DNA of 64,000 nucleotides, taken from the sequence record PZ179880.1; one strand, 5' to 3'. Shown here piece by piece: positions 32,426 through 41,153 of the stretch; the first letter of the stretch is position 1, and the number at the start of each line of letters is the position of its first letter. This stretch comes from a phage. The position numbers and the translations under genes are program-made. The notes beneath the pieces are model-generated. The model was not told where the DNA came from and ran no database searches. It saw nothing but the letters and a program-made list of their open reading frames with translations.

Positions 32426-32899
32426 TTATTTGAATGATTTGACATACTGAACAGAACCTTTGCTATTCACAAAGGCGATTTTACCATTTTTGTTATACAT
32501 GGTGGCAGTACGCTGATAGCCATAAGTTTGCTTACCAGATTGATAACCAACTAATGCAAAATTATCTTCGCCCATTTTATTCTGCTTAGCGCGGATGCGT
32601 TCATGGCCGTGTGCCATAAGAACCTTAGCATCACCAGTTGCAATGGATCTACGAGTTTTTTCATCTTCAACTGTATTAACAAAATCGTCAAATGAATCAA
32701 ATTTAGCATGGGATTTATTATACAGTTTTCCATCTACTGCATAATTATATCCCTGTACATCCATCTCAACTTCTGTACCATCATCCAATACAGCAGTGAT
32801 TTTTTGACCTTTTTTAAATTTCAAAAGATCAGTAAAAGATTCAGCAATAATTTGAGAATTAATAGCTGCTTCAGTGATAAATTCTTGATATGTTTTCAT
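32426..32899 (-). CDS. Internal-protein-like capsid-targeted protein (157 aa)
   Basis: N-terminal MKTYQEFITEAA is the T4 capsid-targeting sequence shared by IPI/IPII/IPIII. Confidence 0.6.
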   Translation of the reverse strand: MKTYQEFITEAAINSQIIAESFTDLLKFKKGQKITAVLDDGTEVEMDVQGYNYAVDGKLYNKSHAKFDSFDDFVNTVEDEKTRRSIATGDAKVLMAHGHERIRAKQNKMGEDNFALVGYQSGKQTYGYQRTATMYNKNGKIAFVNSKGSVQYVKSFK

Positions 32900-32908
32900 A
32901 TGTTTCCT

Positions 32909-33325
32909 TTAAATGTAAATATTTTTGCCGTAATACTTGTACCAGTGTGGCTTCATTAAAATTTTTTCATCGAGTCGTTGTTGACTCAATTTAATAGCTG
33001 ATTTGCATGGATTATAATCATTTTTCCATTCTGCTGGAATATCGCTGATGTCAGGAACTTCAGTATCTTTTATACTAAACCCACGTTTTAAGCATTCCGT
33101 TATAATGTCTGATTGACGCTTTCGCAAAAATTCTAACTTATCGTAAAAGAACGTAACATGACCAGAACCTAAAATAAACTCGGAAGATATTTTAAAATCT
33201 TTAACCCGCTTACCATTTGCCACGTGTTTACGAACTATACCAAAAACACGTGGCAATTCACGATACTCAGCCATAAGATGTTGGTCGGTCAGTTCAGAAA
33301 CAAGTGTTAAATTGATACGAGTCAT
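32909..33325 (-). CDS. denV: Endonuclease V (pyrimidine-dimer DNA glycosylase DenV, 138 aa)
   Basis: [29 protein letters not shown]... matches T4 endo V closely but not identically; RBS GGAGG before MTRIN. Confidence 0.95.
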
Positions 33326-33328
33326 AAT

Positions 33329-33382
33329 TTCCTCCAAGTAGTTGATGAATGTATAGTATCAAAGTCCTTGGAGGAAGTAAAC
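33329..33382 (-). promoter_or_regulatory. Early promoter (TTTACT...TACTAT) embedded in an inverted repeat that pairs with the denV RBS
   Basis: Arms 33367-33376 and 33329-33338; -10 at 33353-33358, -35 at 33377-33382. Confidence 0.45.
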
Positions 33383-33383
33383 A

Positions 33384-33665
33384 CTATTTTTCTGAAGCGC
33401 CTGAAATATATTTTTCAAGACGTTGTTTCATTAGCGAGCCGTTCTTAGCGATTTCTTCTGGTTTATCGCACATACGCAACAAGGCTTCAAGCTTAACGAT
33501 ATCGCTGGTACGTTCAAATTTGCGAGTATCTATCTTACTAGCAAGTTCAGAAATACGTGCTAATAGACTTTCAGCTTCAACCAAAGCTGCACCTAGCTTA
33601 GTTGCAAATGTGTCAGTAGCTTCGTTAAGAATAGATTCTGATAAAAATTCACTATATGTTTTCAT
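33384..33665 (-). CDS. Internal-protein-like capsid-targeted protein (93 aa from [10 protein letters not shown]; IPII position)
   Basis: Capsid-targeting sequence [10 protein letters not shown]; located between denV and e. Confidence 0.6.
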
Positions 33666-34150
33666 ATATACGCTTTCCAAGTTCCTGTTTTAAATGTTGA
33701 GATTACGCGTTTCGCGCGATTAGGTGTCTGACGATACCATTTAGATTGGGCTAGATTTACTGCTGCTTCATCCCAGCGTTTTTGTTGGAGCATACGTAAA
33801 GAATTAGTAAATCCTGCCACGCCGGTTTCTCCCATTTGAAAAACCATATTAATTAATGCACAGCGGCGAACAGCATCAAGAGAATCATAAACTGGTTTTA
33901 ATTTAGCATTTCTCAGAATTCCGCGAACAGCAGCATCAACATCCTGATTAAAGAGTTTTTCAGCCTCATCTTTTGTAATTACACCATTGCAATTACGCCC
34001 AATAGCTTTATCTAATTCAGATTTGGCAACACTAAGTGATGGACTTTTGGTAAGCAAATGACCAATGCCAATAGTGTAATAGCCTTCTGTGTCTTTATAG
34101 ATTTTAAGTCTAAGACCTTCATCTATACGTAACATTTCAAATATATTCAT
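33662..34150 (-). CDS. e: Endolysin, T4-type lysozyme (162 aa)
   Basis: [38 protein letters not shown]... matches T4 lysozyme with a few substitutions and a 2-aa shorter C-terminus. Confidence 0.95.
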
Positions 34151-34184
34151 AATACCTCCTAAGTATTTATAGAAGGTATTTATA
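34151..34184 (-). promoter_or_regulatory. Two late-promoter motifs (TATAAATA) inside an RBS-sequestering hairpin upstream of e
   Basis: Minus strand tTTATAAATAccttcTATAAATActtAGGAGGTATTatg; AATACCT pairs with AGGTATT covering the Shine-Dalgarno. Confidence 0.6.
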
Positions 34185-34186
34185 AA

Positions 34187-34642
34187 TTAAAAGAGGCTGT
34201 TCATTATTCGGTAAAGTGAAGGGCCCATCACATATTGCCACTGGGTACGAGGAATAAGAGCAAAAGCATCCATCTCTGGAATCATAACGCCATCTTTATT
34301 TTCAAAATAAGACTCGCAATAGCAATTTCTAAACATCTCATGCTCTACTGGAATCGTATAATAAAATAACTGTAGGTCTTTATTACTAGAATATTTAAAT
34401 ACACCTAGGTCTTCTAGAAGGTCTGGATTATAATTGTTAAAACCAGTCTCTTCTAAACATTCTCTTCGTGCTGCATCTAATGCGCTTAAATCAGAATTTT
34501 CTACACGGCCCTTTGGAATATCCCAGCGATGTGCCATCATTCCAGGCTTACGAGAACCAGTAACCCGACCCATAAATAAATCTTTATCTTCTGTCATAAA
34601 GATAATACCAGCTGATAATGTTTTCATTTTAATTTCCTGCAA
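34187..34642 (-). CDS. nudE: Nudix hydrolase NudE (151 aa)
   Basis: Nudix box GRVENSDLSALDAARRECLEETG. Confidence 0.85.
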   Translation of the reverse strand: MQEIKMKTLSAGIIFMTEDKDLFMGRVTGSRKPGMMAHRWDIPKGRVENSDLSALDAARRECLEETGFNNYNPDLLEDLGVFKYSSNKDLQLFYYTIPVEHEMFRNCYCESYFENKDGVMIPEMDAFALIPRTQWQYVMGPSLYRIMNSLF

Positions 34643-34986
34643 TCAATCACAAACTCTTTCATTGATTCATTTTCAATATAAGACATGTAGCTATTATATT
34701 CTTTTAATTGTATTTTGTAATCCTTTTTTCTTTGCCAATTTATTTTAAAATTATCATAATGAAAATATAGAATGATACAAAAGAATGAAAATAATGAAAT
34801 AATTTTAGTATAGCGAAGTTCACTCCAAACTTCTATTATATTTACTGTGCCATCGATGTTTAAAATAAGACAGTCAATTAACAATCCAAAAAGACTACCC
34901 GCAAGAGCTGCAGCCAACGCCACAGCAAAAATTAAAAATGACCCAGGAAGCGAATATTTGACTTTATTTAGTTTTGGCTTTTGCAT
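34624..34986 (-). CDS. Hypothetical membrane protein (120 aa)
   Basis: Two hydrophobic helices. Confidence 0.5.
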   Translation of the reverse strand: MQKPKLNKVKYSLPGSFLIFAVALAAALAGSLFGLLIDCLILNIDGTVNIIEVWSELRYTKIISLFSFFCIILYFHYDNFKINWQRKKDYKIQLKEYNSYMSYIENESMKEFVIDCRKLK

Positions 34987-39816: not shown

Positions 39817-39817
39817 G

Positions 39818-39890
39818 CTGGGAATAAAGGACTCGAACCTTTGCATCCTGGAATCAAAATCCAGTGCCTTACCAACTTGGCTAATTCCCA
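39818..39890 (-). tRNA. tRNA-Gln (anticodon UUG), U1-A72 first pair, no encoded CCA; abuts tRNA-Leu
   Basis: Acceptor TGGGAAT/ATTCCCA, D-arm GCCAAGTTGGTAAGGC, anticodon loop TTTTGAT. Confidence 0.8.
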
Positions 39891-39987
39891 ATTATTAACA
39901 AAGGCTCTTAAGCAAGAACCCTTGATGATAGAGGGTATTAATCAGTGCGATATGAGTTAATAATAACAAATAATTCTTAAAGCATAT

Positions 39988-40275
39988 TTACCATTTATAA
40001 TAATACATATTTACGATGCATTCAAGACCCAAAGGATTCTTGAAAATATCATATTCAAGAGGACCTTTTTCTGTTTCAATAAAGAAATCAAAATTTACTG
40101 TATTAAATTTACGTTCTTCCTTCACTAATTTAACTTGAGAAGATGAACGGTCAATGTAAACCTTTTCAACTTCAAAACATGTTAAAATGCCATAATCATC
40201 AATCAAAGCTTTAGCCGCGTCTTGATCATATTTATATCCATTTTCAATGGATGATACTTTCGCATAAAGAATCAT
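39988..40275 (-). CDS. Hypothetical protein (95 aa)
   Basis: ORF upstream of the tRNA operon. Confidence 0.5.
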   Translation of the reverse strand: MILYAKVSSIENGYKYDQDAAKALIDDYGILTCFEVEKVYIDRSSSQVKLVKEERKFNTVNFDFFIETEKGPLEYDIFKNPLGLECIVNMYYYKW

Positions 40276-40277
40276 TA

Positions 40278-40676
40278 TCAGCCTTCATCAACAATAGTGT
40301 GAGTATTAGCATTTACGATTTGCCACCAATCAAAGCGATTAGAATCCATCGGTTTGTTTTCATTTTCTTTGATAATGTCACGGAGTTCATCTTCAGAGAA
40401 TGCTTTAGCAATTAAATCGGTATACCCACCACGGGGATAATAATTATCACCTGCAAACAAAAGGAAATTTACCTTCCCGGAAGCAACATATGCTTCCTTA
40501 GGATACTTGTTTCCTGCGTGGTCAACCACTTCAATATAACGGTAAGGAATATCGGTTCTTTCAACCCATTGCCATGCCGCCGCAGGGGAATCGAAAGCAT
40601 CTACACCTAAACGATTATCTTCATCTTTAGACGGATTATTTTCGTAATCCGCATATACATAATATTCAACGTTCAT
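40278..40676 (-). CDS. Hypothetical protein (132 aa)
   Basis: ORF. Confidence 0.5.
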   Translation of the reverse strand: MNVEYYVYADYENNPSKDEDNRLGVDAFDSPAAAWQWVERTDIPYRYIEVVDHAGNKYPKEAYVASGKVNFLLFAGDNYYPRGGYTDLIAKAFSEDELRDIIKENENKPMDSNRFDWWQIVNANTHTIVDEG

Positions 40677-40861
40677 TATTCACCTTTAGAAATTTTATCC
40701 ATAACAATAGCAATTAAACCAATTAAAAATGCTACTACAAGTGAAAAAACATTTTCTGCCGTAGTCAATAATCCGCATATAAATCCAACAAACATTGAAA
40801 AACTGAAAGCGGAAGCAGAAATTGCAATAGCAACATTTCGAATTAATTCACAACGTTTCAT
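40676..40861 (-). CDS. Small membrane protein (61 aa)
   Basis: Two hydrophobic helices. Confidence 0.5.
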   Translation of the reverse strand: MKRCELIRNVAIAISASAFSFSMFVGFICGLLTTAENVFSLVVAFLIGLIAIVMDKISKGE

Positions 40862-40878
40862 TTTATTCTCCTCAGTAG

Positions 40879-40918
40879 TAGATAGGGTAATAGTATCACT
40901 ACCCTATCTAAAAGTAAA
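40879..40918 (-). promoter_or_regulatory. Early promoter (TTTACT, 17 nt, TACTAT) with an 11-bp inverted repeat bracketing the -10
   Basis: Arms tagatagggta (40879-40889) and taccctatcta (40900-40910). Confidence 0.45.
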
Positions 40919-40919
40919 C

Positions 40920-41153
40920 TTATTTTTTACGAAAAATTGATTTATTTTCTGCTGCCCATTTTTCAATAACTGCAGCAGGACCAGTAACAACAATTTTATC
41001 ACCGTAATCTTCTGCGGCGAGTTGACCGAAATTATCTAATGCATCACGAAGAACTCCATGAGGCATTTCACCCATTTTATCTTTCTTGCCAGTGTAAATA
41101 AACTCAACTTTTACATCAGCAGTTTCAGCAATAAATTCTTGGTAAGTTTTCAT
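40920..41153 (-). CDS. Internal-protein-like capsid-targeted protein (77 aa; IPI position)
   Basis: N-terminal MKTYQEFIAE capsid-targeting sequence; located upstream of 57B as ipI is in T4. Confidence 0.6.
   Translation of the reverse strand: MKTYQEFIAETADVKVEFIYTGKKDKMGEMPHGVLRDALDNFGQLAAEDYGDKIVVTGPAAVIEKWAAENKSIFRKK

Follow-up and report, generated by a model that had tools for sequence, protein, structure and literature searches.

Comparative analysis of a 64,000-nucleotide (nt) stretch of phage DNA (sequence record PZ179880.1; this whole stretch is referred to here as the window) revealed four open reading frames (ORFs) that begin with the N-terminal capsid-targeting sequence (the tag) of the phage T4 internal proteins (IPs). 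We consider it about 85% likely that these ORFs encode T4-type internal proteins of a Tequatrovirus, namely Ip4, an Ip5-like protein, Ip6 and an unannotated member of the phrog_2280 family, which would be packaged into the head, cut by the prohead protease gp21 and ejected. The window belongs to a Tequatrovirus (T4-like) genome with Escherichia phage ECO07P4 as the best match (98.8% identity); matches to the region were found in 1,211 phage records. Gene order is of the T4 type, with all genes on the minus strand: gene 1, 57A, 57B, the ipI locus, trna.4-.2, the tRNA cluster and rnaD/rnaC, continuing from rnaC with e.8-e.2, nudE, e, denV and vs.8-vs.6. The four genes are as follows (aa, amino acids; pI, isoelectric point; a slash marks the predicted cut).

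32426..32899, minus strand: Ip4 gene, 157 aa, MKTYQEFITEAA; tag MKTYQEFITE/A; mature protein of about 16.5 kDa, pI 9.1
33384..33665, minus strand: 93-aa internal head protein, Ip5-like; site LSE/S; mature pI about 6.3
37515..38078, minus strand: 187-aa tag-bearing protein (IP187), MKTYAEFLTEAA; tag MKTYAEFLTE/A; mature protein of 177 aa, 19.6 kDa, pI 9.5
40920..41153, minus strand: Ip6 gene, 77 aa, MKTYQEFIAETA; tag MKTYQEFIAE/T; mature protein of 67 aa, pI about 6.5

Identification of the Tag-Bearing Genes

A six-frame regular-expression scan of the window for MKTY.EF[IL].E returned exactly these four ORFs, all on the minus strand, while 200 shuffles of the window gave 0 matches and looser tag patterns in the same six-frame scan gave no further credible candidate. 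Plus-strand translation at the coordinates of the four ORFs is nonsense. An initial reading of the letters alone (the sequence-only reading) had named four tag-starting ORFs at these same positions, all of which were confirmed, the strand having been omitted. Ribosome-binding sites of the AGGA type lie 6-10 nt 5' of the 157-aa, 187-aa and 77-aa ORFs.

Regarding the function of the tag, incorporation into the head requires no more than the first 10 residues of T4 IPIII; residues 4 and 7 are the main determinants of targeting, processing is controlled by residues 8 and 10, and gp21 cuts after the Glu of L/I-x-E (PMC9026906). All four proteins, read from the first ATG of each ORF, have the targeting residues Y4 and F7, and a gp21-type site is predicted at residues 8-10 in each of them (ITE/A in the 157-aa, LSE/S in the 93-aa, LTE/A in the 187-aa and IAE/T in the 77-aa protein). 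The equation of the tag with the T4 capsid-targeting sequence made in the sequence-only reading thus holds, as the Y4, F7, I/L8 and E10 determinants are present throughout; T4 IPII and IPIII start with MKTYQEFIAE, and this exact decapeptide is that of Ip6 in the window. Additional candidate sites are found in two of the proteins. In Ip4 a second site, IAE/S, follows residue 20, E20 being invariant in 12 of 12 family members and preceded at P3 by L, I, M or V, and in view of this invariance the Ip4 propeptide may be 20 residues long, like that of T4 IPI (19 residues). The 93-aa protein has LNE/A at residues 13-15, aligned with ITE/S of Ip5 as a putative second cleavage site, whereas the canonical E10 site is found in the 93-aa protein and not in Ip5.

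By analogy with T4, the N-terminal sequence of about 10 residues would bind the gp22 scaffolding core, by which the protein would be built into the prohead; gp21 would cut after the Glu of L/I-x-E at residue 10, probably with an additional cut at E20 (Ip4) or E15 (93-aa protein), and so free the mature protein amid the packaged DNA, from where it would be ejected with the genome into the next host. Being injected with the genome, such a protein could act before any phage gene is expressed. From these sequence features we infer packaging, cleavage and injection of the four proteins in the window phage.

Regarding database matches, the 157-aa protein is 99% identical to RB14 Ip4, matches PF24183 (DUF7412) and phrog_3155 ('internal virion protein') and is present in 471 phage records; phages of Klebsiella, Salmonella and Serratia encode homologs of 61-82% identity with many invariant residues, among them E10 and E20. 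The 93-aa protein is assigned to phrog_3499 ('internal head protein') and is 48% identical to Ip5 of RB14 and T2, and hence not an orphan; its matches comprise 497 records, with 239 at 80% identity or more (233 of these at 95% or more) and 258 at the Ip5 level, below 60%. A protein identical to the 77-aa protein is annotated as ip6 in JK08 and belongs to phrog_8111 ('internal virion protein'). The 187-aa protein corresponds to RB14ncORF136c and to Bas37_0243, the Bas37 copy being 99% identical, and is a member of phrog_2280 ('unknown function'); it is found in 165 records and was labelled hypothetical in 40 of 40 among the matches listed. The names Ip4-Ip10 as used here rest on GenBank annotations (e.g., RB14, RB32, T2).

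Past the tag the four proteins are unrelated, as the sequence-only reading had claimed: in an all-versus-all BLASTP of the mature parts of the four proteins and T4 IPI, IPII and IPIII (a ten-sequence database) nothing better than E = 0.03 was obtained, and in a profile-profile comparison (hhalign) of the 187-aa and 157-aa families only residues 1-12 align. The alignment of mature regions with T4 IPI, IPII and IPIII that the same reading had proposed therefore returned no similarity by BLASTP. No match to solved structures was found for any of the four by sequence search, and DUF7412 in Ip4 was the sole match of the four proteins in Pfam and NCBIfam.

The tag was further examined in a sample of 26 loci, in which at least 97 tag-bearing ORFs of at least 18 BLAST-level families were found, all on the coding strand and confined to three zones; both counts are lower bounds, as the search pattern misses Ip5-type tags without E10. 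Among 61 distinct tag-coding sequences in these loci, the synonymous codons used for conserved tag residues vary (ACT, ACA, ACC or ACG for T3; ATC or ATT for I8; TTA or TTG for L8), which indicates that the tag peptide itself, beyond the mere DNA, is under selection. Several of the families found in this survey are unnamed in the annotations inspected, including a 132-aa family beginning MKTYNEFIAEN..., a 104-aa family beginning MKTYQEFITEST... and a 74-aa family beginning MKTYQEFITEAKRHED...

Virion Evidence from Yersinia Phage fD1

Liquid chromatography-tandem mass spectrometry of purified virions of Yersinia phage fD1 identified g129 ('Head protein, PPAP'), g140 ('Hypothetical protein, PPAP') and g146 ('Head protein, PPAP'; Table S3 of PMC8309999). 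Of these, g129 is Ip4 (99.4% identical to the window protein), g146 is an ortholog of IPI, and g140 is a 157-aa paralog within phrog_2280 (98% identical to Kelasse_135). The fD1 neighbors e.8, trna.4 and vs.8 were not scored as particle-associated (PMC8309999). Detection of Ip4, IPI and the phrog_2280 paralog is thus supportive of packaging, short of decisive. The paper on phages fPS-2/65/90 contains no proteomics.

Variable Loci and Proposed Cassette Exchange

The genes for Ip6, the 93-aa protein and Ip4 occupy the two classical ip loci, while the 187-aa gene has a separate position between rnaC and e.8. The statement in the sequence-only reading that the loci are variable is borne out, since gene content differs among T4, RB14, JK08, Bas37, Kelasse and the window. 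At the e-denV locus the gene order is e-ipIII-ipII-denV in T4, e-Ip4-vs.8 without denV in RB14, e-denV without an ip gene in JK08, and e-IP93-denV-Ip4 in the window. The absence of denV from the e locus of RB14 (survey locus L004, 1839-2901, compared with 32426-34150 of the window) indicates that denV itself belongs to the variable cassette set. The ipI locus (57B-trna.4) contains ipI in T4, Ip5 and ipI in RB14, Ip5 and Ip6 in Bas37 and JK08, and only Ip6 in the window.

The junctions of these genes are conserved as DNA. The ribosome-binding region and the start of the tag-coding sequence of Ip4 (the first approximately 30 nt) are near-identical to those of T4 ipII and ipIII, with similarity ending at about codon 10-12, and the 5' flank of Ip6 is that of T4 ipI, with similarity likewise lost at about codon 10-12. 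Ip6 is bracketed by two cassettes of the early-promoter/stem-loop (PeSL) type.

41184..41212, minus strand: PeSL-type cassette upstream of Ip6; TTTACA-17-TATTAT, hairpin core GGTAGTGATATTATTACC
about 40886..40918, minus strand: second PeSL-type cassette, directly downstream of Ip6; TTTACT-17-TACTAT, hairpin core GGTAGTGATACTATTACC

Both fit the published T4/PST PeSL consensus TTTACW-N17-TAYWAT (PMC4122927), with the hairpin in the spacer. The hairpin core that they share has 2 matches, those bracketing Ip6, and 0 of 100 shuffles reached 2. No late-promoter motif was found within 200 nt of Ip6. Unlike the PeSL system, the cassette between rnaC and e.8 is bounded by a duplicated terminator and a late promoter. 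The shared 5' flanks, the PeSL pair and the duplicated terminators are in keeping with the known model, in which recombination at conserved junctions exchanges cassettes; genes would be swapped through the 5' junction (ribosome-binding site and tag-coding sequence) together with promoter/stem-loop or terminator repeats.

Ip6 and the Question of Anti-Defence Function

Ip6 is 100% identical over its 77 residues to Bas37_0260 of phage KarlGJung (Bas37). Disruption of bas37_0260 led to a marked loss of fitness on E. coli K-12 BW25113 and to none in the absence of McrA, McrBC and Mrr; a clean deletion made the phage sensitive specifically to McrBC, and the IP-type N-terminal signal of the protein was remarked upon (bioRxiv 10.1101/2025.11.20.689424). 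By this identity the assignment is carried over to the window, where Ip6 is the predicted McrBC inhibitor. As in Bas37, the gene lies directly upstream of trna.4, but Bas37 carries Ip5 beside it whereas in the window Ip6 is alone at that locus.

The four proteins had been proposed at the outset to be injected, host-specific counter-defence proteins. This part of the sequence-only reading stands for Ip6 only, through Bas37_0260, while for Ip4, the 93-aa and the 187-aa protein it is an extrapolation. Ip1, Ip2 and Ip3 are inhibitors of three distinct GmrSD type IV enzymes, without cross-protection (PMC12373910), and the BLASTP comparison of Ip4, the 93-aa and the 187-aa protein with IPI, IPII, IPIII and Bas37_0260 gave no similarity. 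The conservation of Ip4 and of the 187-aa family across genera is a poor fit to a host-specific, hypervariable arms race.

A Putative Third Internal Protein Locus between rnaC and e.8

In T4 the interval between rnaC and e.8 consists of only about 285 nt of non-coding DNA, while in the window it contains the 187-aa gene; the 425 nt 5' of this gene (38079-38503) align with T4 rnaD and rnaC. The following elements accompany the gene.

38173..38196, minus strand: intrinsic-terminator hairpin, 10-bp stem with 7 GC pairs and a T-run, ending the tRNA/rnaD/rnaC unit
38117..38124, minus strand: AATAAATA, a late-promoter-like motif (7/8), 46 nt upstream of the 187-aa gene
37488..37506, minus strand: terminator-like hairpin directly 3' of the 187-aa gene

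As a terminator-like hairpin directly follows the gene, it is a self-contained cassette. The 7/8 motif occupies the site at which the canonical late-promoter motif TATAAATA is found in homologs from other genera. The canonical motif is present 33-48 nt upstream of the ATG in every distant homolog (Karamvirus, Mosigvirus, Dhakavirus, Jiaodavirus), and at the same distance it also precedes seven of the nine 153-157-aa paralogs, right after the rnaC terminator.

Single-sequence queries with the 187-aa protein, in both word-indexed and exhaustive HMMER searches, retrieved few relatives. The family was widened through P0013, a protein of 31% identity, through tblastn, which matched 351 records, and through a profile search, and phrog_2280 was thereby traced to Mosigvirus, Dhakavirus, Karamvirus and Jiaodavirus besides Tequatrovirus (five Tevenvirinae genera), with every inspected record labelled 'hypothetical'. 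The homologs of the other genera are 205-208-aa forms. In a 23-sequence alignment of members with 12-29% identity to the query, conservation of F7, L8 and E10 of the tag is 90% or higher, and Y or F invariably occupies position 4. The order tRNA cluster, phrog_2280 gene, e.8/e.6 was found in three of the four other-genus loci fetched; the short Karamvirus locus has no annotated tRNA genes and was placed by its flanking genes and the upstream terminator. Across the 26 surveyed loci, the zone between rnaC and e.8 holds only tag-bearing genes.

In Kelasse, JK08, Bas37 and fD1 the 187-aa gene has a 153-157-aa neighbor with the N-terminus MKSYTQFLNE/A. These neighbors are also phrog_2280 members, which makes the locus one of tandem paralogs, while the window has the 187-aa copy alone. 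Each tandem paralog is preceded by a copy of the terminator hairpin, a duplication present in survey loci L001, L010, L013 and L016. A second phrog_2280 gene of 157 aa lies 5' of the 187-aa gene in L001 (7201-7674), L010 (7526-7999), L009 (1718-2191) and L026 (9943-10416), with its own canonical late promoter and duplicated rnaC terminator. Its absence from the window looks like gain or loss via recombination between the terminator repeats.

The structure prediction proposed in the sequence-only reading yielded a model of the 187-aa protein but no functional clue: the AlphaFold2 model (predicted local distance difference test score, pLDDT, 79) has a disordered tag and a small helical N-terminal domain, followed by a linker rich in Pro, Ala and Lys, also disordered, and by a C-terminal helical bundle that is modelled with confidence. 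Mature IP187 is close to T4 IPIII in length (177 versus 183 aa), pI (9.5 versus 9.7) and numbers of basic and acidic residues (K+R/D+E of 32/23 versus 33/23). A simple replacement of IPIII by IP187, as this similarity and the reciprocal presence of the two in T4 and the window would suggest, was considered and rejected, since both genes co-occur in survey loci L016 and L022.

Tentatively, and with somewhat less than even confidence, phrog_2280 may thus be read as a third Tevenvirinae internal-protein locus with its own late promoter, encoding a conserved injected protein in at least five genera, whose target would be either a defence system beyond the GmrSD variants tried or a conserved step of ejection or early takeover. 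On this reading the locus would have been overlooked because T4 is empty there. The searchable literature speaks of two ip loci, and prior recognition of a third is possible in Repoila 1994 or in Comeau and Krisch 2005.

Weighing of the Evidence and Alternative Explanations

Several points weigh against the interpretation of the four proteins as packaged, gp21-cut and ejected counter-defence proteins. Regarding packaging, 137 of the 277 gene products of fD1 (49%) were scored as particle-associated (PMC8309999), a fraction which makes this virion data set one of modest specificity, and the proteins detected are the fD1 orthologs and paralog, as distinct from those of the window phage and from the 187-aa, 93-aa and 77-aa proteins. 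The window ends at the neck genes, and the protease and scaffold genes 21 and 22 (within genes 20-23) lie beyond it; genes 20-23 are core genes of T4-like phages (PMC9026906). At the late-promoter position, Tequatrovirus copies of the 187-aa gene have only the 7/8 variants AATAAATA or GATAAATA. Regarding function, the source of the Bas37_0260 phenotype is a 2025 preprint, the apparent activities of Ip4-10 in tests against 15 GmrSD groups were not reproducible (PMC12373910), and structure prediction and fold searches returned no functional clue for Ip4 and nothing informative on the function of the 187-aa protein.

Among the alternatives, Ip4, the 93-aa and the 187-aa protein could be injected effectors directed at targets other than type IV enzymes, either other defences or host physiology, like the co-injected ADP-ribosyltransferase Alt. 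The lack of reproducible inhibition of the 15 GmrSD groups by Ip4-10 would agree with this, as would the McrBC target of Ip6, which lies outside the GmrSD family; Alt, likewise packaged and cut by gp21, acts against Mokosh type I and MazEF (bioRxiv 10.1101/2025.11.20.689424). All internal proteins with a known target (Ip1, Ip2, Ip3 and Bas37_0260), however, inhibit type IV restriction enzymes, and no enzymatic domain or informative fold was found in the three proteins, so that we regard this explanation as rather unlikely, though a serious one.

Alternatively, the 187-aa protein, and possibly Ip4, could be packaged and have chiefly a task within the head, such as neutralization of charge and organization of the DNA or assembly of the prohead core as proposed for IPIII, and not be a host-specific effector. 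The resemblance of mature IP187 to IPIII in size, pI and charge points in this direction, as do the syntenic, non-patchy conservation of the 187-aa family over five genera and the 61-82% identity and many invariant residues of Ip4 across phages of Escherichia, Klebsiella, Salmonella and Serratia; IPIII mutants assemble heads more slowly, and lysines of internal proteins contact DNA phosphates (PMC9026906; PMC3012670). Against this, T4 wholly lacks the phrog_2280 family and assembles normally, the co-occurrence of IPIII-type and IP187-type genes argues against simple replacement, and IPIII itself inhibits a GmrSD enzyme, which makes a basic, IPIII-like character compatible with anti-defence (PMC12373910). 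A chiefly structural role is, on this evidence, unlikely.

A further explanation, in which conservation of the shared N-terminus would concern only the DNA, serving recombination or translation initiation, and some of the proteins would be ordinary, unpackaged early proteins of the cytoplasm, is very improbable, for although the near-identical 5' flanks and tag-coding starts of Ip4 and Ip6 and the sigma-70-type early promoter of Ip6 would agree with it, the synonymous codons at conserved tag residues vary, the tag peptide persists at 12-29% protein identity, where the flanking DNA diverges, the positions conserved coincide exactly with the functional ones mapped in IPIII (PMC9026906), and orthologs or paralogs were detected in fD1 virions.

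Comparison with Known Systems

The window proteins resemble T4 IPI, IPII and IPIII in the N-terminal tag, the L/I-x-E site, the two classical loci (57B-trna.4 and e-denV), the 5' junction DNA and the range of size and charge, but differ from them in their mature regions, which have no similarity detectable by BLASTP or profile comparison, and the window contains none of ipI, ipII and ipIII. While denV follows both ip genes in T4, it lies between two ip genes in the window. Regarding the Ip5-like protein, Ip5 is encoded in the ipI locus, whereas the 93-aa protein is encoded in the e-denV locus, with predicted translational coupling to e.

The class of internal proteins has reportedly been described since the 1990s, and Ip4 and Ip5 of T2, T6 and the RB phages are said to have been named by Repoila and colleagues in 1994. 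As a candidate discovery the proposal of the sequence-only reading therefore does not stand, since the literature and the databases already covered the class, its loci and all but one of the four proteins. The finding is largely a rediscovery: the class is known, three of the four proteins are annotated as internal, and one has a published function. A modest new part is the widespread, syntenic phrog_2280 family, which has every sequence hallmark of putative head cargo and is labelled 'hypothetical' in the records inspected.

Injected internal proteins are a first line against restriction, acting before phage transcription, and the four characterized so far each disarm a different type IV enzyme. 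The value of the present analysis lies in a function for one gene (Ip6 as a predicted McrBC inhibitor) and in correction of the 'hypothetical' labels of phrog_2280. A third ip locus would escape screens built on the two loci of T4. The concept is unchanged; the catalogue of internal proteins is enlarged by a defined candidate for target-finding screens.

Neighboring Genes and Minor Observations

Regarding transcription of the e locus, the following elements were found.

33662-34150, minus strand: lysozyme gene e
34164-34171 and 34177-34184, minus strand: T4 late-promoter motif TATAAATA, in two tandem copies just upstream of e

The ATG of the 93-aa gene overlaps the stop codon of e (ATGA), which implies translational coupling to e. 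The tandem promoter pair could drive a late transcript comprising e, the 93-aa protein, denV and Ip4, which would require readthrough.

The rnaD (approximately 38392-38503) and rnaC (approximately 38247-38385) homologs lie on the minus strand within 38197-38503 and are near-identical to T4 over most of their length; no Rfam family matches them, and they were identified by alignment with T4. The interval flanked by tRNA-Arg and rnaD, devoid of genes in T4, contains an ORF of 116 aa (phrog_3355, 'unknown function') at 38504-38854, minus strand, which Kelasse, Bas37 and JK42 share. The tRNA cluster (38873-39890, minus strand) comprises 11 genes (Arg, His, Asn, Tyr, Met/Ile-CAT, Thr, Ser, Pro, Gly, Leu and Gln), compared with 8 in T4, and is without the segB homing endonuclease; the 114 nt between tRNA-His and tRNA-Asn (39028-39141) gave no tRNA call.

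Downstream of Ip4, the ORF at the vs.8 position (31733-32320, minus strand; 195 aa, phrog_1488) has a P-loop, GGRQSGKST, and is weakly similar to the ATPase part of the large terminase (phrog_2, E = 5.6e-6). The vs.6 homolog (31038-31400, minus strand) has the C-terminal glycyl-radical motif RVSGYAV and matches the GrcA-like autonomous glycyl radical cofactor annotated in T4.

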